From Elusimicrobiaceae bacterium (GTDB lineage: Bacteria; Elusimicrobiota; Elusimicrobia; Elusimicrobiales; Elusimicrobiaceae): 64,000 nt of DNA. This document shows, one piece after another, positions 13,551 through 46,916 of the stretch (its first letter is position 1; every line of letters begins with the position of its first letter). The position numbers and the translations under genes are program-made. The notes beneath the pieces were generated by a model. It was not told the origin of the DNA. It searched no databases and worked only from the letters and a program-made list of their open reading frames with translations. The stretch lies in NCBI GenBank assembly GCA_017475405.1, contig JAFVFN010000008.1:1254-65253 (forward strand), written 5' to 3'.

Positions 13551-13738
13551 AATTTAATCTATTTTTGAACTGTATGAAGAATACAGGATACTTCGCAACA
13601 GAAGTAATCAGAAGGGTCAAAAATAGCCGATTAGGCACACAAGAGCGACGGCTTGCGTGTGTCAAGCGTTTCCTGCGTATGCGGGGAACCACGGCTGTTA
13701 TATTAGACTTCCCTTCTGATGCCTAATATGGCAGCCGT
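13551..13738 (+). ncRNA. Pilin leader structured RNA, copy 1
   Basis: P1 AATCTATTTTTGA/TCAAAAATAGccGATT; pseudoknot ATCAGAAGGG (13607-16) with CCCTTCTGAT (13711-20); 16-bp terminal stem ACGGCTGTTATATTAG/CTAATATGGCAGCCGT. Confidence 0.85.
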
Positions 13739-13786
13739 CATTATTTATATATCGTTCAAGAATAGATTTAAAAATAGGAGATATGT

Positions 13787-14335
13787 ATGACAAGAAACAA
13801 AAAAGCATTTACACTAATCGAATTGCTCGTTGTAGTACTGATTACAGGAATTTTAGCAGCCGTGGCGGTACCACAATACCAAAAAGCAGTGGAAAAAAGT
13901 AAAGCTAGCGAGGCTCTAATATTACTTAAAACATTGGCCACTGCTCAAGAAGTATATTATTTAGCGAACGGATCTTATGCAGAGTCCTATACCGAATTAG
14001 ATATTGATATTCCCTGGACAGGAACAACAAAATTTAAACCCGATACTACCGACGCTGTATCCAATGCTGATTGGTCGGCGTCCCTACAGCAGAAGAGTGG
14101 TTATACGAACATTATGCTAGGCCGAATTACTGGTAAATATACAGGAGCTGGATTTATATGGGTACTTACAACAAAATCTGGCCTCAAAGAAAAACAAATC
14201 CTCTGCTTTGAACGGACCAATGGAACTTTTGTTTTTGATACCAACCTATCAAATGGGGCCTATTGCCAGCAAATCATAGGAGGAACTCCTGTTTCTGGCG
14301 GGGCCTCAGGCAGATATTACACCTTACCGTATTAA
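13787..14335 (+). CDS. Type IV pilin-like protein (prepilin cleavage/methylation domain)
   Basis: [31 protein letters not shown]; AGGAGA SD. Confidence 0.9.
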
Positions 14336-14447
14336 TAATTCTGTGTAAACACATGCAAGTAGAAAGCTCTCTAGAAAAAATACTAAAATATAAGAGTCCT
14401 TTTGGCTTTCAACCTTAAGTACAAATCTATTATTTAACGAGGTTCTG

Positions 14448-15527
14448 ATGGAAAAAGAGACCGTTCTAGTCGGCTTGTCCGGTGGGGTAGATTCTGCCGC
14501 TACAGCTGTACTTTTAAAAGAGCAGGGATACCATGTTATCGGTGCTACCATGCTGATTTGGGATCCGTCGCTCCCTGTCCCGAAAGAGGGACACCAAAAA
14601 AATGCCTGTTTGGCTCCGGAAAAAGAGGACTTACAAGAAGTAGAGTCTATTGTCAAAACATTGGGTATTGAGTTTTTGACGGTGGACTGCCGTGAACAAT
14701 ATAAACATACGGTGCTAGATAATTTCCGCTTGGAATATTCCTGCGGACGTACCCCCAATCCGTGTGTATTGTGTAACAGTTTAATCAAATTCGGTGTCCT
14801 TCCTAGCGCCGCTGCGAAACAGGGAATTAAGTTTGACAAATTTGCCACAGGACATTATGCCCGTGTGGAACAAGACCCTAAAACCGGGAAATACCTGCTT
14901 AAAAAAGCTGTGGATCTATCGCGTGACCAGAGCTACTTTTTACACCGTTTAAAACAGGAACAACTCTCCCATGTATTATTTCCGTTAGGTGAAAAAACAA
15001 AACCCGAAATCCGTGAAAAAGCACGTCAGGCCGGGTTGGTAGTCGCTGATAAAGAAGACAGTATGGATTTTTACTGCGGGGATTATAACGATTTATTAAA
15101 CTTCCCCAATAAACCCGGTGAACTGGTTACCTCAGACGGCAAAGTATTGGGACAACATAACGGGATTTGGAACTATACCATCGGCAAACGCAAAGGCCTG
15201 GGTCTAAGCGGATTTGCCGAGCCAATGTATGTAGTTAAAATTGATGCCGAAAAGAACCAAGTCATTATCGGCCCCAAAAGTGCATTGTACTCAGATACAC
15301 TGACTGCCACCAATGTCAGTTGGGTAGCTGGGGAACCGCCAGCCCAAACTTTTGACTGCGAAATCAAAATCCGCAATTTACATGTGCCGGCCAAAGCACA
15401 GGTAACGATAAACGAAGACGGTAGTTTTACAGCCAAGTTTACAGAGCCACAAATGTCTATTACTGCCGGACAAAGTGCCGTTATGTATAACGGGGACATT
15501 GTATTAGGCGGAGGAATTATCCAATAA
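14448..15527 (+). CDS. mnmA: tRNA 2-thiouridylase MnmA
   Basis: SGGVDS, TPNPCVLCN, ATGHYAR, RDQSYFL, TIGKRKGLG and TAGQSAV motifs. Confidence 0.95.
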   Translation: MEKETVLVGLSGGVDSAATAVLLKEQGYHVIGATMLIWDPSLPVPKEGHQKNACLAPEKEDLQEVESIVKTLGIEFLTVDCREQYKHTVLDNFRLEYSCGRTPNPCVLCNSLIKFGVLPSAAAKQGIKFDKFATGHYARVEQDPKTGKYLLKKAVDLSRDQSYFLHRLKQEQLSHVLFPLGEKTKPEIREKARQAGLVVADKEDSMDFYCGDYNDLLNFPNKPGELVTSDGKVLGQHNGIWNYTIGKRKGLGLSGFAEPMYVVKIDAEKNQVIIGPKSALYSDTLTATNVSWVAGEPPAQTFDCEIKIRNLHVPAKAQVTINEDGSFTAKFTEPQMSITAGQSAVMYNGDIVLGGGIIQ

Positions 15528-15548
15528 AACTTGTTCCTTTATCCAAAC

Positions 15549-15579
15549 AAAAAGTACGTGTATCAACCACGTACTTTTT
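15549..15579. terminator. Bidirectional intrinsic terminator (mnmA/dnaJ)
   Basis: AAAAAGTACGTG/CACGTACTTTT between convergent genes. Confidence 0.75.
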
Positions 15580-15603
15580 GTTATATGTTTTCGAGATTCC
15601 CTG

Positions 15604-16716
15604 TTATTTGCAAAACAAGTCTTTAAAGAAACTCTTTTTGCCGCCAGTTTCTTCAGCAAGTGCTTCTAATAATTCCTTTTGTTTAGCAGTCGGTTTCTTG
15701 AGGACCTCAATCTGTACATTGATTAATAAATCTCCAAAACCTTTCTTGCCCAGTTTAGGCATACCGTTACCCTGTACTTTAAGTACCTCACCAAATTGAG
15801 TTCCTTTGGGAATGGTCACTTCCATTTCTTTCCCCTCAATAGTAGGGACCTTGATTGTACCGCCTAATACGGCCTGCGGGTAAGTAATCGGAGCATCAAT
15901 AATTAAATTATCTCCTTCTCGGCGGAAAATCTTATGTTCTTTGACATGCACTTCTACGTACAAGTCTCCAAACCCGCCTCCGTTCTCACCAATGTCTCCG
16001 CCGTTGGATACGCGAAGCGTAACCCCGGTACGTACACCAGAGGGAACTTTGACTGTGATTTTTTCTTTGACGCGTTTGTGGCCCGTACCGCGGCATTCAC
16101 CACACGGTTTTTCAACCACCGTACCTTTCCCCCCGCAATCAGGACAAACCTGCCGCATACTAAAAATCCCTTGCGAATACGTTACCTGTCCGGATCCGCC
16201 GCAGGAACGACACGTCTTTCGGGCACTTCCCTGCGAGGCTCCGCTGCCGTCACACACTGAGCAGTTATCCAAGCGTGTATAATCTACTGGGATCTCTTTG
16301 CCGGAAAACGCTTCTTCCAAAGTTAGGGTTACATCGAGTTTAAGGTCTTCTCCGCGGGTTACGCGCGGTCCGCGGGAACGTCCGCCAAAAGCCCCTCCAA
16401 ACATATCCCCGAATACAGAACCGAAAATCTCATTAATATCCCCAAACCCGCTGGCATTAAAACCGCTAAAACCGCCAGCTCCGTTCACGCCTTCGTGGCC
16501 GTATTGGTCATACATGTGTTTTTTTTGCGGATCGGACAATACAGAAAAAGCTTCGTTTACTTTTTTAAATTGTTCCTCGGCATTTTTATCGCCGGGATTA
16601 CGATCGGGATGGTACTTCATGGCCTGTTTACGGAAGGCCGATTTAATTTCAACCTCGGTAGCCGTACGCTCAATACCAAGGATAGTATAATAATCTTCTT
16701 TCATAGTAGTTGGCAT
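15604..16716 (-). CDS. dnaJ: Chaperone DnaJ
   Basis: J domain with HPD, G/F region, four CxxCxGxG repeats; start 16716 or 16704. Confidence 0.95.
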   Translation of the reverse strand: MPTTMKEDYYTILGIERTATEVEIKSAFRKQAMKYHPDRNPGDKNAEEQFKKVNEAFSVLSDPQKKHMYDQYGHEGVNGAGGFSGFNASGFGDINEIFGSVFGDMFGGAFGGRSRGPRVTRGEDLKLDVTLTLEEAFSGKEIPVDYTRLDNCSVCDGSGASQGSARKTCRSCGGSGQVTYSQGIFSMRQVCPDCGGKGTVVEKPCGECRGTGHKRVKEKITVKVPSGVRTGVTLRVSNGGDIGENGGGFGDLYVEVHVKEHKIFRREGDNLIIDAPITYPQAVLGGTIKVPTIEGKEMEVTIPKGTQFGEVLKVQGNGMPKLGKKGFGDLLINVQIEVLKKPTAKQKELLEALAEETGGKKSFFKDLFCK

Positions 16717-16860
16717 AATAAATTCGTAGTTATATTTTAGCAAATCTAGCACTTATATAGCTAGTGTGCTACTTTAGATTTGGCATGCGCGTACGCTTTA
16801 TGCTATAATATAAGAGCTAAAAAGCGCTTTTTATAAAGTGCGCTGCTAGCGAGTTAACTT

Positions 16861-17169
16861 ATGTACGCAATTATTGAAACTGGTGGAAAACAGTACTGGG
16901 TAAAACCCGGTCAAGATCTGCAGGTTGAAAAGCTGGACGCGGAAGTAGGCGCCAACGTAGAACTCAAAGTTCTCTGGGCCGCTAACGAAGAAGGTACCTC
17001 AGCAGATACCAAAGCCGCTACTGCGGCCAAGGTCACCGCTCAAGTGGTCAAACACCTGAGAGGTCATAAAGTGATTGTCTATAAACGCCGCCCCAAAAAA
17101 GGGTATGAACGTACCCAGGGCCATAGACAAAACTTAACGCAAATTAAAATCACGGATATCCAGTTATAA
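16861..17169 (+). CDS. rplU: 50S ribosomal protein L21
   Basis: MYAIIETGGKQY and GHRQNLT motifs. Confidence 0.95.
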   Translation: MYAIIETGGKQYWVKPGQDLQVEKLDAEVGANVELKVLWAANEEGTSADTKAATAAKVTAQVVKHLRGHKVIVYKRRPKKGYERTQGHRQNLTQIKITDIQL

Positions 17170-17185
17170 ATTGGGAGACTAAACT

Positions 17186-17557
17186 ATGGCACATACAAAA
17201 GCTCAAGGTTCTTCCTCCAACGGAAGAGACAGCCACGGCCAACGTTTAGGGATTAAACGTTACGGCTCCCAGTTTGTAAACGCTGGGGAAATCATCGTAC
17301 GTCAACGCGGTACCAAGTTCCTGCCTGGAACCAACGTATCTCGCGCCAGCGACGACAGTCTCTTTGCCCGCGTAAGCGGTATTGTTACCTTTGAATGGGT
17401 AAGAAGAGGCAAACAACAAATTTCCGTGTACCCCAAAGTTGCGGAAACCAAAGAAGCCAAAGCGCCTGCTAAAAAAACTGCAGCCCCTAAAGCTGCCGCT
17501 AAAAAGGCGCCCGCCAAGAAAGCTGCCAAACCGGCTGCTAAAAAAGCGGACAAATAA
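17186..17557 (+). CDS. rpmA: 50S ribosomal protein L27 with Lys/Ala/Pro-rich C-terminal tail
   Basis: [24 protein letters not shown]; follows rplU. Confidence 0.95.
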
Positions 17558-17571
17558 ACATTTGGCAAATT

Positions 17572-17604
17572 AAGGCGGCGGGAATTTTTCCTGCCGCTTT
17601 TTTT
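17572..17604 (+). terminator. Intrinsic terminator after rpmA
   Basis: GCGGCGGGA/TCCTGCCGC stem plus T run. Confidence 0.75.
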
Positions 17605-17616
17605 GCCAGTAAAACC

Positions 17617-17775
17617 ATGAAACAAGACGATTTACACGTAGTACAGGACGAATGGAGCTACACCGTTACTAAAACATCGGCCCGTAAAAAAGCCAAGCGT
17701 ACTCGCCAAAAGGCGAAGCGGCAACTAAGCAAAAAGCTACTGGCACAAGACGACCCCGGTGAATCGTTGTTATAA
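17617..17775 (+). CDS. Putative 52-aa basic small protein
   Basis: Hand-translated MKQDDLHVVQDEWSYTVTKTSARKKAKRTRQKAKRQLSKKLLAQDDPGESLL; fills the rpmA-obgE gap; no clear SD. Confidence 0.4.
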   Translation: MKQDDLHVVQDEWSYTVTKTSARKKAKRTRQKAKRQLSKKLLAQDDPGESLL

Positions 17776-17783
17776 GGATTTTT

Positions 17784-19163
17784 ATGCAATCAGGCAGTTT
17801 TTTAGACCGTGTTAAAATTTACGTGACCGCTGGTAAAGGCGGAGACGGATGTTTGTCGTTTCGGCGCGAGAAATTCATTGAATTTGGCGGTCCGAACGGC
17901 GGTTGCGGCGGACGCGGGGGAGATGTGATCCTGCGTGCCGAACCAAATTTAACCACGCTCTTAGAACTAGCCTACCACCCGCATATTGACGCTCCTAACG
18001 GTGAAAAGGGAGGCTCTTACAATAAAACAGGCCGTGCCGGTGAAAACCGCTACGTATATGTACCCTGCGGTACCATTGTACGTACGTTGGAAGGAGAATT
18101 TTTAGTTGATATGACCAAACCTGGCCAAGAATTTACCGTGGCCAAGGGCGGTGCGGGTGGACGCGGGAACCAATCCTTTAAAACCCAGCAAAACACGGCT
18201 CCGCATATTGCCGAAAATGGACTCCCCGGAGAAGAAGTAACGTTGATTTTGGAGCTTAAAGTACTGGCCGATCTCGGACTCGTAGGATTCCCCAATGCAG
18301 GCAAAAGTACTTTCTTAAGCCGCATCTCGGCTGCCAGACCGCGTATCGCTAATTATGCGTTTACGACTTTGAACCCCAACTTAGGTATTACATTGCACCA
18401 AGGAGTTAGTTTTGCCACAGCTGATATCCCTGGTATCATTGAAGGGGCCAGTGAGGGGAAAGGACTGGGGATCCAATTTTTAAAACACATTGAACGCACC
18501 CGTGTATTACTACACTTAGTGGATCCAGAAGGATTTGACAGGCTAAGTGCAGAAGAGAGCGTTAAAGTTATTGAAAAAGAACTTAAAAACTTTAATAAAA
18601 AACTCTTTGAAAAACCACGTATTATAGCCGTAAATAAGGCCGATCTTCCTGCTGCCGAAAAAGTTTATAAAACTCTTAGTAAAAAGTTAAAAAAACATAA
18701 AGTAATGCTGATTTCAGCTGCTACGGGACTAGGTGTAAAAGAAGTACTTAACGAGGTGGTCCAAATCTTGTCATCCACCCCTGTTGAGCAACTCACTGTA
18801 GAAGAAGAAAAATCCGTAGTACATAAAGTAGAACCTATTTTTACCATTACGCGCGATGAAAACGATATTATCCATATCACAGGTAAAAAAGTAGAAGAGT
18901 TCATTGCCATGACTAATTTCACGCAACCCGAAGCCGTTACCCGATTAAAAGGTATTTTCAAAAAAATCGGACTTGAAAAAGCACTGCTTAAACAAGGCGT
19001 TCAGGATGGAGACCTGTTAGTCGTTGGCGGTAAAGAGTTTGAATGGAACGGCGATTTTGACGAAGAAGCTCCGCAAGCCCCTGAGCATGCCGGATACAAA
19101 CGCCGGGAAACCAAGGCCGAACGTTTAGCTAAACGCAAAGCAAGACGGGAAGGGAAAAAATAA
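17784..19163 (+). CDS. obgE: GTPase ObgE/CgtA with C-terminal OCT domain
   Basis: Gly-rich Obg fold, GFPNAGKS, YAFTTL, DIPG and NKAD motifs. Confidence 0.95.
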   Translation: MQSGSFLDRVKIYVTAGKGGDGCLSFRREKFIEFGGPNGGCGGRGGDVILRAEPNLTTLLELAYHPHIDAPNGEKGGSYNKTGRAGENRYVYVPCGTIVRTLEGEFLVDMTKPGQEFTVAKGGAGGRGNQSFKTQQNTAPHIAENGLPGEEVTLILELKVLADLGLVGFPNAGKSTFLSRISAARPRIANYAFTTLNPNLGITLHQGVSFATADIPGIIEGASEGKGLGIQFLKHIERTRVLLHLVDPEGFDRLSAEESVKVIEKELKNFNKKLFEKPRIIAVNKADLPAAEKVYKTLSKKLKKHKVMLISAATGLGVKEVLNEVVQILSSTPVEQLTVEEEKSVVHKVEPIFTITRDENDIIHITGKKVEEFIAMTNFTQPEAVTRLKGIFKKIGLEKALLKQGVQDGDLLVVGGKEFEWNGDFDEEAPQAPEHAGYKRRETKAERLAKRKARREGKK

Positions 19164-19176
19164 TTTTCCTTTCCTC

Positions 19177-19728
19177 TCAATAATTCCATCCATATATATT
19201 TGAAGACGACCAGGATACATCTGCCTCAGAATGATTTGTTTCATTTTTACAAATTTGATAGGGAATTCCCGTTTTATTTGATCCATATGCATAACAAACG
19301 GTTTTTCCCGGCGTACGATTAGAATGATTTAAATGGATAAAATATCCTAATACACGATCATGGACATCATCTGTTACTCCTGTTTGGTATAAAGAGCAGG
19401 AAACAGAAGCTACAACATCTTTAAATACCTCTAATCCGCATTCTCCCCATTTATAGTAATATGTTCCATAACTTTCCACTTCTGAAGTTCTTTCTGGCGT
19501 AGGGATTTCTATATCCAAATTTTGGATTCGATCAGTATAAGAACCTGTTGCTAAATAATATACTTCTTCTGCCGCGGCTATTGTTTTGGCTATATGTTTA
19601 ATAGTTGCAAAACGACTTTTCCACACCGCTTTTTGATATTGTGGCACCGCTACCGCTGCTAAAATTCCTATAATTAGCACTACTACCAAAAGCTCTATGA
19701 GCGTAAATGCTTGTTTATTTCCTTGCAT
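19177..19728 (-). CDS. Type IV pilin-like protein (no structured leader)
   Basis: [36 protein letters not shown]. Confidence 0.9.
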   Translation of the reverse strand: MQGNKQAFTLIELLVVVLIIGILAAVAVPQYQKAVWKSRFATIKHIAKTIAAAEEVYYLATGSYTDRIQNLDIEIPTPERTSEVESYGTYYYKWGECGLEVFKDVVASVSCSLYQTGVTDDVHDRVLGYFIHLNHSNRTPGKTVCYAYGSNKTGIPYQICKNETNHSEADVSWSSSNIYGWNY

Positions 19729-19762
19729 AATTATCTCTCCCTATTAGGTATTCTATAGAGAC

Positions 19763-19791
19763 AGAATATCAAAAAAAAAAAAACGCGTCAA
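19763..19791 (-). promoter_or_regulatory. Pilin promoter with poly(T)13 spacer tract (putative phase-variable)
   Basis: Minus strand TTGACG-CG(T13)GA-TATTCT, 17-bp spacer; A13 on + strand at 19771-19783. Confidence 0.7.
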
Positions 19792-19886
19792 GCGAAATTT
19801 TTGGTTCCACAGTTCAACCTGCTAGTGCAACTTTAGTTAGTTTTTATTGTTTGCCTTTTTTAACGATTTCTTGTTACAATGGATTT

Positions 19887-21011
19887 ATGAAGTCCCTGAA
19901 AGCCATTTTCCTTCTCTTGTTGATGACGATCTTCTTGCCGTTACATGCCGGTGGAGGTATTCGTTTTTTACAAAAGGCAGGTAGAGCACTGTCTCCCCAA
20001 GAAGCACGCTTACAACGGGCTATTTCTTATCATATGGACCGTGCCGTACTAAATGCTTCGCATACAGCACAACTAGCAAACACAAACCGGTTGGCTTATT
20101 TTCAATCGTCTCGTACTATTCCTTTTCAACGTATGGCCACAGTCAGTGCCCCAGACCGATATTTGCCGGAGCCCGTAGACCCTTTGTTTATTTTGCGTAA
20201 TGACAAAATGGCCTTTCAATGGTTTGAAACTATAGAAAAAGATCTACATTTTTTGCAAGACCAAAAAGACGCTATTTATAAGACGATAAACTGGCAACGC
20301 GTGTCCCCAGAACAAATGGATTACGCCGCTCTTATTCCAGCAACTGTTCGCAAAATCTTTGTAGGCGAGGAACACAACCAACCTGCCATTTATAAAGCAT
20401 TTGAAAATATGGTATTTCAGTACCAAAAAAAATTTCCGGAACGAAAAATTATTGTTTTAACCGAATTTGTATCAGACCGATTATTACCTTGGCAAAAACC
20501 GGGAAAACCTGTAGGACGTTTGGAGATGCCACTTCGACGTAATTCAAATAAATTTACTTTTTTTAATAAATTTATCCGTGCAGGTATTCAGGTAATCGGT
20601 TTAGAAAATGTAGGATATATTAAAGACCATGAATCTTTGATTACTCCCTCGGAAAGCCAATACGAATCGGTTTACGGTATGCAGGAGCGTAATGCCCACT
20701 GGCGACATATTATCAGCTATGTGGCAGATAATAATCCGGACGCCGTACTTTTTATTTATGCAGGGAATATGCATACACATTACCGGGCACCTTTTACCTT
20801 GGCAAACTCTTCCCCGCAAAACTTTGTAATCCAACTGGAATCTGCTTCTTTGGGAGCAGATATGCCTTTTGGATTTATTATGAAACAAGAACCTTTTACA
20901 CAGGCTTATGCCAATAAATTAACCGTACTAAGTTGGGGCGAAAAAGATCCTGTTTTTCGCACCCGCAGTGGTTTTGATGCTTGTATTATCTTCCCTACGG
21001 AGAACCCATGA
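19887..21011 (+). CDS. Exported hypothetical protein, possibly ChaN/EreA/Tiki-superfamily fold
   Basis: Signal peptide; VGEEH, TEF, GLEN, ERNAHW and YAGNMH pattern resembles the superfamily motifs; fold call is tentative. Confidence 0.55.
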   Translation: MKSLKAIFLLLLMTIFLPLHAGGGIRFLQKAGRALSPQEARLQRAISYHMDRAVLNASHTAQLANTNRLAYFQSSRTIPFQRMATVSAPDRYLPEPVDPLFILRNDKMAFQWFETIEKDLHFLQDQKDAIYKTINWQRVSPEQMDYAALIPATVRKIFVGEEHNQPAIYKAFENMVFQYQKKFPERKIIVLTEFVSDRLLPWQKPGKPVGRLEMPLRRNSNKFTFFNKFIRAGIQVIGLENVGYIKDHESLITPSESQYESVYGMQERNAHWRHIISYVADNNPDAVLFIYAGNMHTHYRAPFTLANSSPQNFVIQLESASLGADMPFGFIMKQEPFTQAYANKLTVLSWGEKDPVFRTRSGFDACIIFPTENP

Positions 21012-21973: not shown

Positions 21974-22008
21974 AGATTTTTGTTATAATAAAAGTGTAGC
22001 AAGAAGAA

Positions 22009-22210
22009 AATTTAATCTGTTTTTGGAAGCGTTTTAGAAACGCTGAGCTGTTATAAACTAACAGCACCAAGTAAGTCCAAAAACAGCTGTTTTAGGTACT
22101 ATACCCATAAGCTGATCCCTTGTTGGTATAGTGCCGAGTGTTTGCCACATGGTGGCAAGCCACGGCTGTTATTGATGGGTTACTTACTTGGACTCGGATA
22201 TAGCAGCCGT
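22009..22210 (+). ncRNA. Pilin leader structured RNA, copy 2
   Basis: P1 CTGTTTTTGG/CCAAAAACAG; pseudoknot CCAAGTAAGT (22067-76) with ACTTACTTGG (22182-91); terminal ACGGCTGTTAT/ATAGCAGCCGT; TGTTATAAT at 21981. Confidence 0.85.
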
Positions 22211-22251
22211 TTTTATTACGTATTTTCCAAAAACAAATTTTAGGAGAATAT

Positions 22252-22773
22252 ATGAAAAATAATAAACAAGCATTTACACTCATTGAGCTTTTAGTCGTTG
22301 TACTCATTATAGGAATTTTAGCATCAGTGGCCCTTCCTCAATACAGGAAAGCAGTTGATAAGGCTCATTTTACGGAATTACTAAATGCCATTCGACCTCT
22401 TAGAGATATGCAAGAAATTTACTACTTAGCAAATGGAGAATATGCTAAAGATTGCGAAGAATTAGGAGCCGAATTTCCTGGATATAATTTAAACTCAAAA
22501 AAACAATTAGTAAATAACAAAAACCATTTTGTACTAGATTGTCAACGCGGTATTACCGATGGAGATAATGGCTATGACCGAGTAGAAGGCCTTACCACCC
22601 CGATACAAATTACTTTTGGATTTATGTTATCACATGCAAAGTATGTAAATTCGCGTAATAAAATGTATTGTTATGCTGTAAATACAAGCACATATCATCA
22701 ACAATTGTGCCAAAGTTTTTGTGGAGAGTTAGAACCTATTTTATTCCAGGGCAAAGGATGCTATATGAATTAG
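22252..22773 (+). CDS. Type IV pilin-like protein
   Basis: [31 protein letters not shown]. Confidence 0.9.
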   Translation: MKNNKQAFTLIELLVVVLIIGILASVALPQYRKAVDKAHFTELLNAIRPLRDMQEIYYLANGEYAKDCEELGAEFPGYNLNSKKQLVNNKNHFVLDCQRGITDGDNGYDRVEGLTTPIQITFGFMLSHAKYVNSRNKMYCYAVNTSTYHQQLCQSFCGELEPILFQGKGCYMN

Positions 22774-22803
22774 AAATAGCCCGCTCATTAGAGCGGGCTA
22801 TTT
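22774..22803. terminator. Bidirectional terminator (pilin/rplA)
   Basis: AAATAGCCCGCTC/GAGCGGGCTATTT. Confidence 0.8.
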
Positions 22804-22824
22804 GTGTTTGCAAAAGAGAGTTTG

Positions 22825-23499: not shown

Positions 23500-23513
23500 C
23501 TAAATACTCCTTA

Positions 23514-33116: not shown

Positions 33117-33656
33117 TTAGTTATACTTCCACTCTGTATACCCTGCTGATTTTGGAGTATGTGTCGGGACTATAAGACCTGTTTCTAATTTACACAATCT
33201 ATTGGACAAATGATCTAAATCCGTAGTATAGGCTATACATTGCTCCCATTTAGACCTTGATAAATTTCCCTTCTCATAATACTGTTTATAAAAAACATCA
33301 ATACCACCTACTTCCGTTCTACAAGCAATAGCCGTACCATAACTCCGACACTCCCACCCATCAAACAAATAAATAATCTTGGTTACCTCGTCATTTTCAC
33401 CCCTATCCTTTTCTTCTTCATATCCGGCAGGGAGATCTACATCTAAAACCGCTAAATCTATTGCATATTTTCCGTTGGCTAGGAAATATACTTCCTGCGC
33501 TTGAACTATACTTTTCACTAAAAGTTTTAATCTAGCAAATCTACTTTTTGCCACAGATATTTGGTATTGTGGCACAGCTACTGCTGCCAAAATCCCTATT
33601 ATTAATACTACAACGACTAATTCAATTAGCGTAAACGCTTGTTTATTTAGTTTCAT
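33117..33656 (-). CDS. Type IV pilin-like protein
   Basis: [36 protein letters not shown]; AAGGAGA SD before ATG 33656. Confidence 0.9.
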   Translation of the reverse strand: MKLNKQAFTLIELVVVVLIIGILAAVAVPQYQISVAKSRFARLKLLVKSIVQAQEVYFLANGKYAIDLAVLDVDLPAGYEEEKDRGENDEVTKIIYLFDGWECRSYGTAIACRTEVGGIDVFYKQYYEKGNLSRSKWEQCIAYTTDLDHLSNRLCKLETGLIVPTHTPKSAGYTEWKYN

Positions 33657-33706
33657 AATATTTCTCCTTATATGCTTCAATTCTCTGTTATGAAACCCAA
33701 TAAAAA

Positions 33707-33908
33707 ACGGCTGTCTCTTTTGAGCTCATAGGAGTGACCCAATCAAAACAGCCGTGGTCTACCGCAAGACGGTAAACGCTCGGCACAACATAATGGGATT
33801 ATAAGTTCCATCATGCTGTACCTAAAACAGCTGCTTTTGGACTCCTATGATGCCTTTAATATTTAAAAGCTCTCCGTTTCTTAAACGGTTCCAAAAACAG
33901 ATCAAATT
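33707..33908 (-). ncRNA. Pilin leader structured RNA, copy 3
   Basis: Minus strand: TTGCTA-17-TATACT promoter; P1 CTGTTTTTGG/CCAAAAGCAG; pseudoknot TCATAGGAGT (33841-50) with ACTCCTATGA (33726-35); terminal ACGGCTGT/ACAGCCGT plus T run. Confidence 0.85.
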
Positions 33909-37571: not shown

Positions 37572-37614
37572 TTTGTTTAACTCTTGCCTAAAATAAGATA
37601 AATTGGATAGATAT

Positions 37615-38204: not shown

Positions 38205-38320
38205 ACTATACCTCATTACTGATAGTGTACATGGTATTACTTTAAAACATGGGTCAAAAGACCTACGTAATTTTAAGGCCTATCCCTGGAATTTATGTTA
38301 TAATAAAAGTGTAGTAATAA

Positions 38321-38524
38321 AATTTAATCTGTTTTTGAAACCGTCTAAGAAGCGGGTTGCTTTAGCAAAACTAAAGTTTCAGTGAGTTCAAAAGCAGTCG
38401 ATTAGGTACAACGCCAACGGAATTGCAAACCTGTTACGTTGTGCTAAATGTTTATCGCATTCGTGTGATAAACTACGGCTGTTATATATTGGGTAACTCA
38501 CTGAGCTCAAAAAATAGCAGCCGT
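38321..38524 (+). ncRNA. Pilin leader structured RNA, copy 4
   Basis: TGTTATAAT at 38296; P1 CTGTTTTTGA/TCAAAAGCAG; pseudoknot TCAGTGAGTT (38379-88) with AACTCACTGA (38495-504); terminal ACGGCTGTTAT/ATAGCAGCCGT. Confidence 0.85.
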
Positions 38525-38573
38525 TTTATTGGGTTTCATAACAGATCGCTGACTACGATTAAGGAGATAAGTT

Positions 38574-39059
38574 ATGAAATCAAATATACAAGCATTTACA
38601 TTAATTGAGCTACTCGTTGTTGTGCTGATTATAGGCATGCTAGTGGCTGTAGCCATACCACAGTATAAGAAAGCTGTTCTTAAAAGTCGTTTAGCCGCTA
38701 TTAAACCTATTTTATCGGCCATTAAAACAGCTGAAGAATCCTATTATTTGGCTAATGGAGAATATACTTATAATATGGATTTATTGGATATTGGGAGTAG
38801 TTGTTCTAGAGAAGCAGATGTAAGTTTGGTCCGATGTGATCCCTATTTTTTAATAGATATTATGGGAGATAGCGGAACCAATTTGAACTGGCGATATATA
38901 GAAGCTGCCTATTGTTTAGGCAAAAAAGTCACATGGAGCGAGTGCGAACCAGCCGATTTTTATTATAGGAGATGGTACAACTACTCAACCTATCCCAATA
39001 AGGAAGAATGTATAGGTGTAACCGACATAGGCAAAGAAATGTGCAAAAGTATAAACTAA
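38574..39059 (+). CDS. Type IV pilin-like protein
   Basis: [36 protein letters not shown]. Confidence 0.9.
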   Translation: MKSNIQAFTLIELLVVVLIIGMLVAVAIPQYKKAVLKSRLAAIKPILSAIKTAEESYYLANGEYTYNMDLLDIGSSCSREADVSLVRCDPYFLIDIMGDSGTNLNWRYIEAAYCLGKKVTWSECEPADFYYRRWYNYSTYPNKEECIGVTDIGKEMCKSIN

Positions 39060-39065
39060 ATAATT

Positions 39066-39098
39066 ATGGGCATCACAATAAGACTTGTGATGCCCTAT
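39066..39098. terminator. Terminator hairpin between pilin and atpC
   Basis: GGGCATCACAA/TTGTGATGCCC. Confidence 0.7.
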
Positions 39099-39114
39099 AT
39101 AACCAATTAAACAA

Positions 39115-39530
39115 TTAGATATGTTTCTTTTTCTTGACTTTCATGCGGGCTATGGCTTGCTTGATTTCCATCTCCGCCAGTTCAAAGTCAATATCTGCAT
39201 CTTTGTTGGAGAGCGATTCTTTTAGCGCTTTAATGCGCTGTTTTTCTTTTTCCTCGTCAATTTCTCCGGCCAAAGCAGCGTTTTCGGCAAACACATTAAC
39301 CACATCGTCTAACACTTCTACAAAACCACCCAATGCGGCGAACTCCTCTTCCTGCCCGTCTGCTTTATACCGAAGAGACCCCATGCCCAGTTGCACCACG
39401 GTTTTTACATGACCGGGCAAAATCCCCATTTCGCCCAAGAGAGCTGGTAAAATAACCATATCTACCGGCTTATCTTGGATAAGCTGTTTTTCGGGCGTAA
39501 CTAAATTCAGTGTTAGTTTTTTGCCGGACA

Positions 39531-39531
<1 letters not shown>
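39115..39531 (-). CDS. atpC: ATP synthase F1 epsilon
   Basis: LVTPEK, GEMGILPGH and GGFVEV motifs. Confidence 0.93.
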
Positions 39532-40961
<1,430 letters not shown>

Positions 40962-41867
40962 TTAACTGTTAAGAGCTTCTGCTCCGTTGACAATATCTAA
41001 AATTTCATTGGTAATACCGGACTGACGTACTTTATTTAGTTTAACACCCAACGCGGTGACCAGTTCTCCGGCGTTCTTACTGGCTGCATCCATGGCATTC
41101 ATGGTGGCTGCCAAGTTCGCAGCTTGAGATTCCAAAAGCACGCGGTATAAATTCGCCTTTATAAGCCGCGGAACCAATAATTTAAAAATTTCCAAAAGTC
41201 CGGGCTCAAACTCAAAATCACGGACCTCTTTTTCTTTTTTTACCTGCTCAAAATCAAAAGGCAACCATTGACGTTCTACTAACGTTTGGCTGGCCAGCGA
41301 TTTAAAATCATTGTAAATCAATGTGACAGAAGCCAGTTTCTCATCCAAAAAAGTCTTGAGTACCGCATCCCCCAAAAGCTCGGCATGTGCATAAGACACT
41401 TTGGGGAATATCCCCACGCTCTCATAGGTTAAATGCAAGTTACGCATTTTAAGGCGGTTCAAAAAGTCACGTCCCTTTTTGCCGATCGCAAAAATAAAAA
41501 TCTCTTTGTCTTTATTTCGACGTAAAAACGCCAGGGCACTTCGTAAAATTACTGCGTTAAAAGAGCCAGTTAAGCCTTTGTCCCCTGTAATAACAATAAG
41601 TCCTATTTTATGTGGATCTCCGCTACGGTTTACAAAAATACGACCGGCCCAGTTTTCACTGCCGTCCTCGGGTTGCGGCAACGCCAAAATATCCTGTTTT
41701 AAATCGTCTACCATTTCAAGCATTTTTTTAGCAAACGGACGAGCGGCTATCATGGAGTCCTGCGCTTTGCGGATGCGTGCATTGGAGATCATCTTCATCG
41801 TCTGCATGATCTGTTGAGTGGACTTGATAGCTTTAATATTTTGGCGTATGTCGCGTAACGATTCCAT
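40962..41867 (-). CDS. atpG: ATP synthase F1 gamma
   Basis: STQQIMQTMKMIS, DKGLTGSFN and NKVRQSGITNEI motifs. Confidence 0.95.
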   Translation of the reverse strand: MESLRDIRQNIKAIKSTQQIMQTMKMISNARIRKAQDSMIAARPFAKKMLEMVDDLKQDILALPQPEDGSENWAGRIFVNRSGDPHKIGLIVITGDKGLTGSFNAVILRSALAFLRRNKDKEIFIFAIGKKGRDFLNRLKMRNLHLTYESVGIFPKVSYAHAELLGDAVLKTFLDEKLASVTLIYNDFKSLASQTLVERQWLPFDFEQVKKEKEVRDFEFEPGLLEIFKLLVPRLIKANLYRVLLESQAANLAATMNAMDAASKNAGELVTALGVKLNKVRQSGITNEILDIVNGAEALNS

Positions 41868-42806
41868 TTATCTGTTTTCCGCTTTTAAGATTTTTACGTA
41901 ATCGGCAATCCCCGTCTCCAAGGTATAATCCGGGGTATATCCCAGTTTTTCTTTGGATTTGGTAATATCTGCCTGCGTTTTTACTTGGAAAAACGCCGCA
42001 TACGGGTTGTCAATATATTCAGGTTCCAAGTGGGTCCCCATCTCTTTGTTTAAGCACGCAATCATTTCATTATAATCGCGCGGGATACCCGTAGCCGCGT
42101 TATAGACACCGGATTCTTTACCGTTATTTAACGCACACAAATTGATTTTCACGATATCTTTTACATAGACAAAATCACGTTGTTGTTCGCCCATTTTGAA
42201 AACACGAGGGCGTTTGCCTTCTTTCATTTGCAAATACAACTGATAGACCATACTGGCCATTTTGCCCTTATAATATTCGCCGGGACCATATACGTTAAAA
42301 TAACGCAATCCAATCACTGTCATATCATGGTTTTCTTCTACAAATTGGCGAGCGACGTTATCCATAACCGCCTTGGAAAACCCATAAATATTTTCCGGAT
42401 GGGTGGGTTGTGTTTCCACATTGGGAACCGGACCGTTGCCATATGTGGCGGCCGAAGAAGCATAAACCACTTTTTTGATCCCATTTTCCGCAGCAAAATT
42501 AAGCAAATTTTTAAACGCTTCTACGTTTTGCTCCATCATGGCCTTTTGGTCCATGACTGTTGTATCGGTAATAGCCGCTTCGTGAAAGATAGTATCAAAA
42601 TACATATCTCCCAATAAAGTTTGGAATAAATCTGCAGCAATCACATCCCCTTTAAAACCAATCAGGTTTTTAAAGTGTCCGTTTTTAGAAAAGTCATCCA
42701 ATACGGTTACTTCATGTCCCTGGGCTTCCAACGTTTTGGCAATATTGCTGCCGATAAAACCGGCTCCGCCTGTTACTAAATATTTTTTTCTGTTTTTAGC
42801 GTCCAT
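41868..42806 (-). CDS. rfaD: ADP-L-glycero-D-manno-heptose 6-epimerase-like NAD-dependent epimerase
   Basis: GGAGFIGS, YASSAATYG, YGFSK and RYFNVYGPGEYYKGKMAS motifs. Confidence 0.85.
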   Translation of the reverse strand: MDAKNRKKYLVTGGAGFIGSNIAKTLEAQGHEVTVLDDFSKNGHFKNLIGFKGDVIAADLFQTLLGDMYFDTIFHEAAITDTTVMDQKAMMEQNVEAFKNLLNFAAENGIKKVVYASSAATYGNGPVPNVETQPTHPENIYGFSKAVMDNVARQFVEENHDMTVIGLRYFNVYGPGEYYKGKMASMVYQLYLQMKEGKRPRVFKMGEQQRDFVYVKDIVKINLCALNNGKESGVYNAATGIPRDYNEMIACLNKEMGTHLEPEYIDNPYAAFFQVKTQADITKSKEKLGYTPDYTLETGIADYVKILKAENR

Positions 42807-42815
42807 AAATTCTCC

Positions 42816-44871
<2,056 letters not shown>

Positions 44872-44872
44872 A

Positions 44873-45367
44873 TTATTTCCCTTTAACTTCCTCTAAAACT
44901 TGTGCCACAATCTGATCAGCCGCGTTGTCAGTAACCTGACGCCCCACTACGCGCGAAGCCGCTAACAAGCTGATAGAGGCAATCTCGCCGCGCACATCAG
45001 ACAGAGCTTTGTTTTTTTCCGCCTCAATTTGTACTTTGGCCTGCTCTATCAGTTTTTCGGCTTGTACTTTGGCTTGCGCTAAGAGATGATCCCGTTGAGC
45101 TTCACCCAGTTTAACGGCCTGTGCCATTTTTTTGGCGGCCTCATCCGATATTTGCGCTAAACGTGCGTCCAGTTCTTGTTTAAGTTGTTCGGCACTTTGG
45201 CGTGCATCGGCAGCCGTTTGCTTGTCTGCGGCAATTTGTGTTTCGCGTTTCTCCAGAGCTTCAATAATTGGTCCCCACGCAAATTTTTTAAGCAAATACA
45301 CCAAAAGCAAAAAGTTACAAACCGTTAGCGCCAATACGCCGTAATCCGGCTTTAACAAATCTTCCAT
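44873..45367 (-). CDS. atpF: ATP synthase Fo subunit b
   Basis: N-terminal TM FLLLVYLLKKFAWGPI plus coiled coil. Confidence 0.92.
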   Translation of the reverse strand: MEDLLKPDYGVLALTVCNFLLLVYLLKKFAWGPIIEALEKRETQIAADKQTAADARQSAEQLKQELDARLAQISDEAAKKMAQAVKLGEAQRDHLLAQAKVQAEKLIEQAKVQIEAEKNKALSDVRGEIASISLLAASRVVGRQVTDNAADQIVAQVLEEVKGK

Positions 45368-45370
45368 AAA

Positions 45371-45601
45371 TTATTTCATGACCATCGTCAGTAAGCAGAT
45401 CACCAAGCCTAACATCGCAGCCCCTTCTAACAAAGCGGCAATAATGATCATCGTGGTACGCAGATCAGAAGCGGCTTCCGGTTGGCGGGCAGAACCTTCC
45501 AGAGCAGCAGCGCCGATTTTACCAAGTCCAAACCCGGCACCCAATACTACCAATCCTGCACCGATACCGGCGGCGATATATTTAAGTGCTACTAGTTCCA
45601 T
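45371..45601 (-). CDS. atpE: ATP synthase Fo subunit c (H+-type motif)
   Basis: GxGxGxG, ARQPE loop, LLEGAA; start MELVALKY with AAGGAG SD. Confidence 0.93.
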   Translation of the reverse strand: MELVALKYIAAGIGAGLVVLGAGFGLGKIGAAALEGSARQPEAASDLRTTMIIIAALLEGAAMLGLVICLLTMVMK

Positions 45602-45639
45602 ACTTTTCTCCTTAGCGGATACGTCCGCTGTTATAAAAT

Positions 45640-46401
45640 TTAATGCGTATGTATAACCGATCCTGCAAAAATAGCAGTCAGCAGGGTAAACACATACGCT
45701 TGTAAAAACGCGACTAACAACTCTAAACACGTCATAAAAATTTCTAATACCATGGCGGGCAATAAGGCTCCTACTCCGGCAGCTTTACTCATACCACCCA
45801 CAATAAAGATAATCAGTAAAAGACAAATCAGTACCATGTGCCCCGAGAGCATATTGGCAAATAAACGAATAGCCAGCACACAGACTTTAATAATAAGACT
45901 CACTACTTCCAACGGGAAAATAAGCGGCACCAGCCACTTCGGCGTACCCGACGGTACAAACCCTTTTAAAAAACCAATGAAGCCATGATACTTAAGACCG
46001 CTAAACACAATCAGTGCTCCCGAACACAACGCAAGCGCTGCCGTTACAGAAATATTAGACGTAGCGGTCTTCATTTCTGGGATCATACCTACTAAATTTA
46101 CCGATAAAATAAACAAAAAAAGTGTACAAAAATACGGCAACATTCCACGTCCTTCTTGTCCCATATTAGGAAGTACCATCCCGTCGCGGATAAACGAAAC
46201 ATATTCTTCTAAAAGCGTAGTAACTAAACGCCCGGCGCGACTGGTGTGTTTGCGCGTGGCCCATGCAAGCGTTAAAATAAGAAGTATACTAACGGTAAAA
46301 ATAGTAACCGAATGGGTAGTAACCGGGAGACGAAATCCGTTGAATACCACTCCCCAATCGTGGTCTAAAATATGGTGAGATATTGTTTCAGCTACGTCCA
46401 T
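45640..46401 (-). CDS. atpB: ATP synthase Fo subunit a
   Basis: LAIRLFANMLSGH and LQAYVFTLLT motifs. Confidence 0.93.
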   Translation of the reverse strand: MDVAETISHHILDHDWGVVFNGFRLPVTTHSVTIFTVSILLILTLAWATRKHTSRAGRLVTTLLEEYVSFIRDGMVLPNMGQEGRGMLPYFCTLFLFILSVNLVGMIPEMKTATSNISVTAALALCSGALIVFSGLKYHGFIGFLKGFVPSGTPKWLVPLIFPLEVVSLIIKVCVLAIRLFANMLSGHMVLICLLLIIFIVGGMSKAAGVGALLPAMVLEIFMTCLELLVAFLQAYVFTLLTAIFAGSVIHTH

Positions 46402-46633
46402 GTTTATCAACCTTTTTCAAATCTATATTTGCTTGACGAGCAACACTGATAATGCGCCACAACCCGAAAGCAAATCCTACTAAAACTCCCCCTACCAAAC
46501 ACCAGGGCAAAGAGCCCAGTTTCCCATCTAACCAATAGCCCGTTACGGCCCCAATAATTTCTGTTAGTGCAAACTCAGTACCTAAAGAAGTAATCTCTAA
46601 ATGGTCTTTAGCACTAAACGGACCTAGTGGCAT
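46388..46633 (-). CDS. AtpZ/AtpI-family membrane protein
   Basis: GYWLDGKLGSLPW..GFAFG; first gene of the atp operon. Confidence 0.8.
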   Translation of the reverse strand: MPLGPFSAKDHLEITSLGTEFALTEIIGAVTGYWLDGKLGSLPWCLVGGVLVGFAFGLWRIISVARQANIDLKKVDKHGRS

Positions 46634-46731
46634 GGAATAAATTCTCCTCTAGCAGGGGATACTTACATTATAAAAAATTAGAGAAGAAAATTCACAAGAA
46701 ATTTTGTTATAATGAAAGTGATGTAAACTAA

Positions 46732-46916
46732 AATTTAATCTATTTTTGAGCCGCATATAGATGCGGGTTTGCTTAATAAGCATCCATCGAAGTCAAAAAT
46801 AGCCGATTAGGTACAATGGGACCGTACATCCTGTTGTACCAAATGCTTATCGTTTATCACGATAAGCTACGGCTGTTGTATTGAGCTTCTTCGATGGGGA
46901 TTAATACAGCAGCCGT
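46732..46916 (+). ncRNA. Pilin leader structured RNA, copy 5
   Basis: TGTTATAAT at 46705; P1 AATCTATTTTTGA/TCAAAAATAGccGATT; pseudoknot CCATCGAAG (46784-92) with CTTCGATGG (46889-97); terminal ACGGCTGTTGTATT/AATACAGCAGCCGT. Confidence 0.85.

Follow-up and report, generated by a model that had tools for sequence, protein, structure and literature searches.

A copy-specific long-range pairing in pilin gene leaders of Elusimicrobiaceae, probably part of a transcription antiterminator

The window analysed here, a stretch of 64,000 nucleotides from an Elusimicrobiaceae genome, contains five leader RNAs in each of which one strand, the key, is the exact complement of another, key', located downstream in a terminator loop (Table 1). 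We consider it rather likely that these leaders represent an undescribed transcription-attenuation leader placed before more than 100 pilin genes, and that key:key' makes up the outer part, free to vary and probably acting as the nucleating toehold, of a long-range antiterminator helix which competes with the transcription stop.

The key:key' pairing and the leader family

All five key/key' pairs of the original prediction were located, each exactly once and at the coordinates given, key and key' being 104-116 nt apart. As first described, the key immediately precedes the P1 3' arm; key' sits in the loop at the tip of a hairpin, which is GC-rich and has a U-tract after it. When the key of one copy was set against the loop of another, the longest exact complement had a mode of 4 nt and reached at least 9 nt in 3 of 3000 trials, so that the probability of five matches out of five is about 1e-15 and chance is excluded.

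A covariance model identified 127 full-length copies in the 1.68-Mb genome of the window, which is that of a gut Elusimicrobia, and they are followed almost without exception by type IV pilin-like genes of ~170 aa. Every copy is oriented like its gene, with the U-tract downstream and, upstream, a promoter of its own of the TGnTATAAT type. The leader RNA matches no Rfam family, cobalamin or any other (c-di-GMP-II gives no match even at E<=10), and it was not found in the searchable literature. Among the 125 copies of this genome that could be parsed, 124 have an exact key/key' complement of at least 7 nt (mode 10 nt), the last one, once correctly parsed, pairs CTCGTCAA with TTGACGAG, and no two of the 125 keys are the same. 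Nor do homologues often lack the complementarity, since it is kept in 131 of 132 copies from other Elusimicrobiaceae species. In a model-based alignment of 77 copies, the 8 scored pairs of the key helix all vary at both positions, with pairing in 89% of the cells. This is the strongest covariation of all helices in the leader RNA, where five further helices covary; the whole-structure values were reached by none of 500 shuffles.

Table 1. Coordinates of the five leader copies (A to E) of the window, their segments and the genes that follow them
Feature	Position	Strand	Remark
Leader A	13551..13746	+	full covariance-model match, 160.8 bits
A, segment 1 (P1 5' arm, TCTATTTTTGA)	13558..13568	+	
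A, key ATCAGAAGGG	13607..13616	+	
A, segment 2 (P1 3' arm / antiterminator 5' strand, TCAAAAATAGCCG)	13617..13629	+	
A, segment 3 (terminator 5' arm / antiterminator 3' strand, CACGGCTGTTAT)	13690..13701	+	
A, key' CCCTTCTGAT	13711..13720	+	terminator apical loop
A, segment 4	13728..13741	+	terminator 3' arm + U-tract start
Pilin-like gene A	13787..14335	+	182 aa, N_methyl motif
Leader B	22009..22218	+	covariance model, 210.8 bits
B, segment 1	22016..22026	+	
B, key CCAAGTAAGT	22067..22076	+	
B, segment 2	22077..22089	+	
B, segment 3	22161..22172	+	
B, key' ACTTACTTGG	22182..22191	+	
B, segment 4 + U-tract	22200..22213	+	
Pilin-like gene B	22252..22773	+	173 aa
Leader C	33699..33908	-	covariance model, 205.3 bits
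C, promoter-like site	33945-33917	-	TTGCTA-17-TATACT
C, segment 1	33891..33901	-	
C, key TCATAGGAGT	33841..33850	-	minus-strand reading
C, segment 2	33828..33840	-	
C, segment 3	33745..33756	-	
C, key' ACTCCTATGA	33726..33735	-	
C, segment 4 + U-tract	33704..33717	-	
Pilin-like gene C	33117..33680	-	longest ORF 187 aa; later ATG probably true start
Leader D	38321..38532	+	covariance model, 187.6 bits
D, segment 1	38328..38338	+	
D, key TCAGTGAGTT	38379..38388	+	
D, segment 2	38388..38400	+	shares last key base
D, segment 3	38474..38485	+	
D, key' AACTCACTGA	38495..38504	+	
D, segment 4 + U-tract	38514..38527	+	
Pilin-like gene D	38574..39059	+	161 aa
Leader E	46732..46924	+	covariance model, 164.8 bits
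E, segment 1	46739..46749	+	
E, key CCATCGAAG	46784..46792	+	
E, segment 2	46793..46805	+	
E, segment 3	46868..46879	+	
E, key' CTTCGATGG	46889..46897	+	
E, segment 4 + U-tract	46906..46919	+	
Pilin-like gene E	46954..47427	+	157 aa

Competing helices and their predicted energies

The leader consists of four conserved strands, 1 (UCUGUUUUUGG), 2 (CCAAAAACAGCCG), 3 (CACGGCUGUUAU) and 4 (AUAGCAGCCGUUUU), for which two folds can be drawn. One combines 1:2, i.e. P1 formed around hairpins P2 and P3, with 3:4, the intrinsic terminator; the other has 2:3 as an antiterminator around P4 and P5, strand 1 being re-paired with strand 4. Strand 2, which follows the key, has the 5' end (in P1) or the terminator 5' arm (CGGCUGUU) as its partner, and covariation supports each of the 1:2, 2:3 and 3:4 helices. 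The key precedes strand 2 by 0-3 nt and key' follows strand 3 at 9-13 nt, in antiparallel register with 2:3, so that key:key' constitutes an outward nested continuation of the antiterminator; this register and adjacency hold in 120-125 copies.

In the antiterminator core (AACAGCCG:CGGCUGUU), 214-239 of 239 copies show pairing, and the independent alignment of 77 copies gives 98.6%. At X'10-X''6, double changes from G-C to A-U occurred in two copies (C4_36894 and L068), where the P1 partner forms a C.A mismatch, and A at X''8 is seen only alongside U at X'8 (3 cases out of 3). Positions X'11 and X'12, which have no P1 partner, vary only between C and U opposite invariant G's. The independent double changes behind this covariation are few because strands 2 and 3 answer to three partners; the bridging CCAA:UUGG section is weak, with 82% pairing and essentially no covariation.

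When the nested key:key' fold is forced, it reproduces the predicted architecture and is predicted to be isoenergetic with the terminator fold (ddG of +0.4 +/- 4.8 kcal/mol over 120 copies; values for the two folds of -76.5/-78.6, -78.2/-78.1, -60.6/-63.1, -67.6/-69.0 and -70.5/-70.9 for the five window copies). The energy model attributes about -14 kcal/mol to the key helix, and it would be through this helix that the read-through fold matches the stop fold in stability. For a nascent transcript cut 2 nt past key', 119 of 120 copies are predicted to fold into key:key' with the antiterminator, by a margin of -12.8 kcal/mol. There is no correlation between key strength and the energy gap that it should balance (r = -0.04).

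We propose that P1 would form first during transcription and leave the key exposed in a three-way junction, and that the emerging key' could dock on it, giving an intermediate with a brief pseudoknot relative to P1. Inward zipping of the helix would then displace strand 1 from strand 2 and sequester strand 3 and the loop, and with the terminator blocked RNA polymerase would read into the pilin gene. Masking of the key, or stabilisation of P1, would lead to termination.

Alternative explanations of the pairing

The original prediction was of a static or OFF-state pseudoknot with P1 and terminator both formed, in which pairing of the apical loop with the junction strand would lock the stop fold or couple the P1 domain to the terminator, in the manner of the cobalamin riboswitch kissing loop. 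It is true that key and key' are both single-stranded in the minimum-energy terminator fold, that the key abuts P1, so that the helices could stack, and that a state with P1 and key:key' must arise at least transiently as key' emerges; we nevertheless regard the static state as unlikely. With the terminator formed, key' takes up about 10 of the 12-13 nucleotides of the apical loop, leaves a 3' linker of 0 nt in 102 of 120 copies and, in some copies, has its outermost base in the loop-closing stem. A 10-bp stem 1 with a loop 3 of 0 is sterically impossible while this closing stem, which covaries at 7 of its 7 pairs, exists, and a 10-bp H-type pseudoknot on the intact terminator was rejected as implausible for these reasons. 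Melting of the weak upper terminator stem would provide linkers of ~10 nt, and a rough energy sum, made with nearest-neighbour energies that are unable to evaluate pseudoknots, then gives a stability on paper about equal to that of the other states. But a lock of -14 kcal/mol on the stop fold would, on paper, render the switch irreversible, and it leaves the selected 2:3 pairing and the C/U-only pattern at X'11 and X'12 unexplained. What survives is a loop-junction pairing that is real, selected and copy-specific and that involves the terminator apical loop; the static lock is not supported, given the covariation of 2:3, the nested register and the 0-nt linker. Relative to P1, a pseudoknot should occur only for a short time, as a toehold intermediate.

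Another possibility, to which we give little credence, is that pairing takes place between two molecules of one leader, the key of the first with key' of the other, either in a dimer or in trans, when a terminated leader meets a nascent transcript; interaction would then be confined to transcripts of a single gene and provide gene-specific feedback. A stable hairpin that displays key' at its apex is the classic arrangement for antisense recognition, and the 6-nt self-complementary word present in 88 of 120 P4 apices (21% expected) would help to join molecules. Besides, every key is unique in the genome, keys persist across species as other parts of the leader change, and covariation does not separate cis from trans for identical molecules. 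However, the cis partner is always ~117 nt away and favoured by local concentration, and the fixed register beside strands 2 and 3 follows from pairing in cis and is not needed in trans. Furthermore, the keys are not over-dispersed within the genome: nearest-neighbour keys are more alike, not less, than in a composition-matched null, which also gives no support to the idea that copy-specific keys serve orthogonality.

Keys had also been imagined as address tags. Each would be read by its own trans-acting RNA, or at some other site of the genome, and the pilin gene to be expressed would be selected in this way. Their uniqueness within the genome and the recurrence of identical keys in other species (12/12 identity in 5 pairs, compared with 0.03 expected) would suit such a role, which we find very improbable and which is largely refuted at the sequence level. 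For keys of at least 9 nt, exact complements in the genome outside the leaders number 468, and shuffled keys give 462-596; extended matches reach 13-15 nt at most, which is chance level, and are unclustered, the gene's own mRNA yielded no key complement, and NusG is single, no locus-specific antiterminator paralogue having been found. Finally, an action of the inverted repeats at the DNA level in recombination or replication (e.g. as cassette recombination sites), which gain and loss of leader-plus-pilin cassettes between species and the non-syntenic sites of leaders sharing one key could evoke, is hardly credible when G.U is tolerated ~20x more than A.C in the sense strand (P1 counts of ~89 vs 4), promoter and U-tract follow gene orientation in every copy, and five further helices covary.

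Comparison with known regulatory leaders

The zipper-type transcriptional attenuator cATTpLS20 of the Bacillus subtilis plasmid pLS20, which has been studied experimentally, shares with the pilin leader a stable stem-loop domain in the centre, with a stem-loop upstream of it and an intrinsic terminator downstream (PMC13401043). In both, the upstream element has a 3' strand complementary to the terminator 5' stem as well as the loop, so that the central helix can be lengthened into an antiterminator; calculated energies are similar for the terminator and antiterminator folds (PMC13401043). The two are without sequence relationship, and cATTpLS20 serves conjugation operons with one copy per plasmid, whereas the pilin leader serves pilin genes with >100 copies per genome. 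Unlike cATTpLS20, the pilin leader has two hairpins (P4 and P5) as its central domain, an outer section that is hypervariable between paralogues, and extra partners for strand 1 (strand 4 and a downstream element).

Three-helix attenuators, made of an anti-antiterminator, an antiterminator and a terminator, include the E. coli trp leader (1:2/2:3/3:4) and the B. subtilis pyr/PyrR leaders. Common to these and the pilin leader are four strands upstream of the regulated gene, 1:2 + 3:4 excluding 2:3, and a U-tract on the intrinsic terminator. The pilin leader differs in that neither a leader peptide nor a known protein-binding site was identified in it, in the copy-specific 10-bp extension added to 2:3, in its structured inserts between strands and in belonging to a massively paralogous family.

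Ligand-gated strand displacement operates in transcriptional riboswitches such as ZTP and pbuE adenine, to which synthetic toehold switches can be added. In all of these, as presumably in the pilin leader, an exposed strand acts as a toehold that nucleates a helix invading a pre-formed one during transcription, and engineered orthogonal toehold libraries likewise combine one scaffold with many differing toeholds. In contrast to ZTP and pbuE, the pilin leader has no evident conserved ligand pocket, its junction strand being the variable key, and synthetic toehold switches, unlike the pilin leader, act in trans on translation. The L5-L13 kissing loop of cobalamin riboswitches also joins sensor domain and expression platform by a long-range tertiary-type pairing, but it is a few-pair loop-loop contact compatible with all helices, whereas the pilin leader has 10 bp that fill the loop, in competition with neighbouring helices. 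The c-di-GMP-II riboswitch upstream of Clostridioides difficile pilA1 is, similarly, a transcriptional leader switch before a type IV pilin gene, with another architecture and one copy as against >100.

The key/key' arrangement extends far beyond the five leaders in which it was first noted, to some 127 leaders of one genome. If key:key' is the outer section of an antiterminator, each paralogue would have its own key because the key sequence is free to vary, provided that both sides match.

A leader family in front of pilin genes

A search with a covariance model built from the five leader copies of the window (A, B, D, E and, on the minus strand, C) revealed 127 full-length copies of this folded RNA in the 1.68 Mb (30 contigs) of the genome that holds the window, i.e. 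one every 13 kb or so, together 1.6% of the genome DNA. Nearly all of them are followed, after 25-45 nt, by the start of a pilin-like gene of about 170 aa (median leader-to-ORF-start distance ∼35 nt), and a few by GT2-type glycosyltransferase-like or other genes. The ORFs behind the five window leaders (157-187 aa) carry a motif for prepilin N-terminal methylation and match type IV pilin or pseudopilin families more weakly; the same genome also encodes a single prepilin peptidase together with four ATPases of the PilB/PilT type. The ∼120 paralogous pilins are near-identical over their N-terminal ∼55 residues and at most 60% identical pairwise over the remainder, and in most of them Ala replaces the canonical Gly before Phe in the prepilin cleavage motif. 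Several contigs break off within pilin genes, in their conserved 5′ portion, so the real number of cassettes may be above 127. Two pairs of pilin ORFs, 95-98% identical, had been taken as recent duplicates with different keys; both consist of ORFs truncated at contig ends and were discarded.

A pattern scan of public genomes gave matches confined, besides a few evidently mislabelled bins, to Elusimicrobiaceae MAGs from gut and rumen, which are labelled "Candidatus Avelusimicrobium" or uncultured Elusimicrobium. The leader model matched 20 of the 24 same-genus genomes and, within the family, four of ten genera; elsewhere in the order, 16 genomes representing other families had no match. No family of Rfam 15 matched the leader: the whole window at gathering thresholds and two leaders at E ≤ 10 returned only tRNAs and noise. 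As far as we searched the literature on Elusimicrobia, pilins and RNA motifs, the leader family is undescribed.

Locations of features discussed in the text (G000 is the genome that holds the window; C19 to C30 are its contigs)
Feature	Location	Strand	Remark
Copy D cassette	window 38321-39059		atpC-adjacent site
P4 apex, copy D	window 38420-38436
P4 apex, copy C	window 33790-33806	minus
Fifth conserved element	window 38536-38550		GGGTTTCATAACAGA
Fifth conserved element	window 22228-22240
Prepilin cleavage motif with Ala	window 22252-22340
Contig ends within pilin genes	G000 C22:1-443; ends of C19 and C20
Divergent leader variant	G000 C29:16466-16673	minus	47.5 bits
Site lacking the cassette of a relative	G000 C30:5122-5656		534 bp between flanking genes

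Four conserved strands and a matched key

Upstream of each copy, a TGnTATAAT-type -10 element is found 10-25 nt before the first of four conserved strands (UCUGUUUUUGG, CCAAAAACAGCCG, CACGGCUGUUAU and AUAGCAGCCGUUUU for strands 1 to 4). The order is strand 1, then P2, P3 and the key, strand 2, P4 and P5, strand 3, key′ and strand 4, where the key is the stretch of about 10 nt directly 5′ of strand 2 and key′ its own complement in the apical loop of the terminator. Among 239 distinct leader copies, strands 1 and 2 (helix P1) are paired at each position in 235-239 copies, two of the pairs covarying between G-C and A-U, and strands 3 and 4 pair in 196-239 copies to form the terminator, which is followed by UUU(U). 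Strand 2 is also complementary to strand 3 (AACAGCCG with CGGCUGUU), positions 6-13 of the former (X′) pairing with positions 3-10 of the latter (X″) in 214-239 of the 239 copies per position. At X′10-X″6, G-C is replaced by A-U in two copies, leaving a C.A mismatch at the P1 partner of X′10; an A at X″8 is seen only alongside a U at X′8 (three of three cases); and X′11 and X′12, which have no P1 partner, are only C or U opposite invariant G's (109 transitions versus two transversions). On alignment A2 (77 copies), pairing in the 2:3 core reaches 98.6%, and the 77-copy alignment shows covariation in P2, P3, P4, P5 and both terminator stems, the upper one included. Since the helices tolerate G.U roughly 20-fold more often than A.C, the structure resides in the sense-strand RNA.

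Judged from these pairings, the leader is a 1:2 / 2:3 / 3:4 attenuator: an intrinsic terminator lies between promoter and ORF, 2:3 is an antiterminator using the 5′ strand of the terminator, and P1 an anti-antiterminator sequestering the 5′ strand of the antiterminator. A consensus terminator scanner, whose loop limit is 8 nt, misses these terminators. Regarding a sensor, no Rfam aptamer matches the leader, the genome has a single NusG and no NusG paralogues, and the junction strand that carries the key is variable and thus holds no conserved pocket.

Two further elements were noticed along the leader. The P4 apical loop falls into a few types (GGACUAAUUACCC, GGAACUUAUAAUCCC, GGACCUUCGAAACCC, GGGUCUCGAGCCCC, GAGUCAGCUGCUC and others), and a 6-nt self-complementary word is present in 88 of 120 P4 apices, versus 21% in shuffles; such an arrangement recalls the dimerisation sites of kissing loops and points to contacts between leaders. 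In at least 74 of the 127 copies another conserved element, the fifth (CAUAAACAGA or CCAAAACAGA), follows the U-tract and precedes the ribosome-binding site, ∼10-40 nt past the terminator. Strand 1, at the leader 5′ end, could pair with this complementary element in the full-length mRNA, which possibly protects the 5′ end or affects the ribosome-binding site.

Each of the five key/key′ pairs of the window was found once, where the original prediction had placed it. In all five, the first member is directly 5′ of the conserved strand CCAAAAACAG, which closes a helix with the leader 5′ end, and 104-116 nt further 3′ the second lies within the loop at the tip of a GC-rich hairpin, ahead of a U run. 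Out of 125 parsed copies from the same genome, 124 have, within the 16 nt that lead up to the 3′ arm of P1, an exact complement of at least 7 nt to their own loop (mode 10, range 7-14) and the remaining one pairs CTCGTCAA with TTGACGAG; all 125 keys differ from each other. The helix extends over 10-11 bp if G.U is allowed (4% of pairs), and the median spacing from key to key′ is 117 nt. A chance origin is as unlikely as had been supposed: mismatched key/loop partners give a mode of 4 and reach 9 nt or more in three of 3000 trials. Homologues in other genomes, had the prediction been wrong, were expected often to lack the complementarity; it is kept in 131 of 132 leaders from other species, the mode being again 10. 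In the Infernal alignment, whose 77 copies come mostly from other species, each of the eight scored key pairs varies on both sides, with two-sided changes in 21-41 of the 74 distinct sequences per pair, and 89% of the key cells are paired despite the fixed column register; for the structure as a whole, the observed values were not approached by any of 500 shuffles or by any slid register. Key:key′ is the strongest-covarying helix of the leader RNA.

The keys are not fully random in sequence. Counted in all copies over the 12 nt before strand 2, C is found at -10 in 50%, U at -7 and -6 in ∼47%, A at -3 in 70% and U at -1 in 59%. The key helix stops abruptly, with A frequently opposite G at its outer end, and the pair types immediately beyond it were uninformative. 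A divergent leader variant in the same genome keeps a matched key (GATTCTGAAC/GTTCAGAATC); the gene behind it is not a pilin gene (273 aa, weak restriction-endonuclease-like matches only), and a similar variant is present at a locus of another species (L021).

A probable place of the key in the antiterminator, and competing readings

Between the key and strand 2 there are 0-3 nt, and between strand 3 and key′ 9-13 nt; given this antiparallel register next to 2:3, key:key′ is a nested outward extension of 2:3. When key:key′ was forced as a nested helix in ViennaRNA, the fold comprised the key helix, a short CCAA:UUGG bridge and the 2:3 core around P4 and P5, and strand 1 was re-paired with strand 4. 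The mean energy of this fold is -71.8 kcal/mol, versus -72.2 kcal/mol for the fold with P1 and the terminator, in which the key is unpaired; the difference is +0.4 ± 4.8 kcal/mol (n = 120 copies), and 0.1-2.5 kcal/mol in the five window copies. The key duplex amounts to -13.7 kcal/mol, and according to these models an antiterminator deprived of it could not compete. For transcripts ending 2 nt past key′, i.e. in the state just before strand 4 exits the polymerase, the minimum-energy fold has key:key′ and 2:3 in 119 of 120 copies, and these are favoured by -12.8 ± 3.4 kcal/mol. Key strength and energy gap showed no correlation.

The original prediction was of a loop-junction pseudoknot locking the fold. 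Its pairing is real and selected; as to the role of that pairing, we lean towards key:key′ being the variable outer part and the toehold of the antiterminator rather than a lock. With pairings that covariation has shown, we infer an order of events, a default state and a direction of regulation as follows. P1 would form first, the key staying exposed in the P1/P2/P3 junction; key′ would then dock on the key as on a toehold, and the key helix would zip inward, displacing strand 1, so that strand 3 and the loop would be sequestered and the polymerase would read through. Masking of the key or stabilisation of P1 would instead result in termination.

The same pairing could be engaged in a pseudoknot whose upper terminator stem is melted, or in a transient intermediate combining P1 and key:key′, and we regard either as a possibility. 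A full pseudoknot of the terminator loop with the junction strand, P1 and terminator being intact, is sterically disfavoured: the apical loop of the terminator fold has a median of 12-13 nt, about 10 of which are taken by key′, there is no unpaired nucleotide 3′ of key′ in 102 of 120 copies (0-3 on the 5′ side), and the 7-bp upper stem closing the loop covaries at all seven pairs. By established pseudoknot stereochemistry, in an H-type geometry the 3′ linker must span the minor groove of a 10-bp helix, for which zero nucleotides are insufficient, and thus the full pseudoknot needs the upper stem to be melted. As for an H-type or kissing-loop riboswitch class, no curated riboswitch family of Rfam 15 matched at gathering thresholds, and matches at E ≤ 10 were noise.

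Another reading, which we hold to be very improbable, is that the keys constitute a gene-specific RNA memory, the key′ of a terminated leader binding the exposed key of nascent transcripts of its own gene alone, blocking the toehold and forcing termination. The terminated leader would show key′ in a stable apical loop, read-through transcripts would hide key′ in cis, and self-complementary P4 loops would bring leaders together. If this were true, more than 100 pilin genes would be independent heritable ON/OFF switches operating with no DNA change, and a gut bacterium would have an RNA-only path to surface variation.

It had also been speculated that distinct keys keep the paralogous leaders orthogonal. 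Nearest-neighbour keys within the genome are in fact closer than in a column-shuffled null (mode 9/12 versus 8/12), hence there is no over-dispersion, and distinct keys need no special explanation because the pilin paralogues are old (no two full-length pilins exceed 60% identity). The use of keys as address tags for trans-acting RNAs is unsupported. Keys of at least 9 nt match exactly outside leaders 468 times, and shuffled keys 462-596 times; extended matches reach 13-15 nt at most, no longer than chance would give, and do not cluster. No partner for either key or key′ was found in the mRNA that follows it, and the second complementary site elsewhere in the genome that a trans-encoded antisense or address system calls for was not found.

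Key turnover and relation to known attenuators

Between species, five pairs of keys are identical at 12 of 12 positions and 13 pairs at 11 or more, versus 0.03 and 0.28 expected, respectively, from a composition-matched null. Most of these same-key pairs are non-syntenic and their pilins are only ∼40% identical. One locus of a related genome (L004) is roughly syntenic with window copy C and has the entire key in common with it; P2-P5 differ. In one clear pair of protein orthologues there is a compensated key substitution (TCATACAT versus TCATGCAT); in another the keys are unrelated. Orthologue assignment by pilin protein gave best cross-species matches of only ∼45% identity, and by key-masked leader identity the best and second-best matches were indistinguishable (0.72-0.74). 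The leader/pilin cassette of copy D is absent from the atpC-adjacent site in all 17 same-genus relatives (L145-L161), where homology stops at the common atpC terminator of the atp operon; elsewhere, a cassette present in a relative is matched here by only 534 bp between the flanking genes. Leader-plus-pilin cassettes are quickly gained and lost at the edges of housekeeping operons. Given the recurrent keys, the compensated change and the gain and loss of cassettes, keys are heritable, change by compensation and travel with fast-turnover cassettes.

The closest characterised system is cATTpLS20, a zipper-type attenuator of the B. subtilis plasmid pLS20 (PMC13401043). As in cATTpLS20, the key plus strand 2 complements strand 3 plus key′, enclosing P4 and P5, and the two conformers are near-equal in stability (+0.4 ± 4.8 kcal/mol in 120 copies of our leader). 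However, cATTpLS20 is upstream of conAn-type conjugation operons, whereas our leader precedes pilins and a few glycosyltransferases, and unlike the pLS20-family leaders it belongs to an Elusimicrobiaceae host and not to a Gram-positive plasmid. There is no sequence relationship to the pLS20 leaders, and the likeness is mechanistic only. The leader family is new, and its mechanism is a variant of known attenuators.

About 1.6% of a 1.7-Mb genome is devoted to 127 copies of an elaborate leader RNA that would control a pilin repertoire. With more than 100 different sequences serving one structural purpose on a single scaffold, the key helix forms a natural collection, which offers both an unusually rich covariation record and a test bed for the relation of toehold length and strength to termination efficiency. 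Placing the key helix in the read-through fold gives the expected direction of mutant effects. The question is now narrowed to what triggers the switch, and to whether gut Elusimicrobia choose among their pilins at the RNA level for surface variation.
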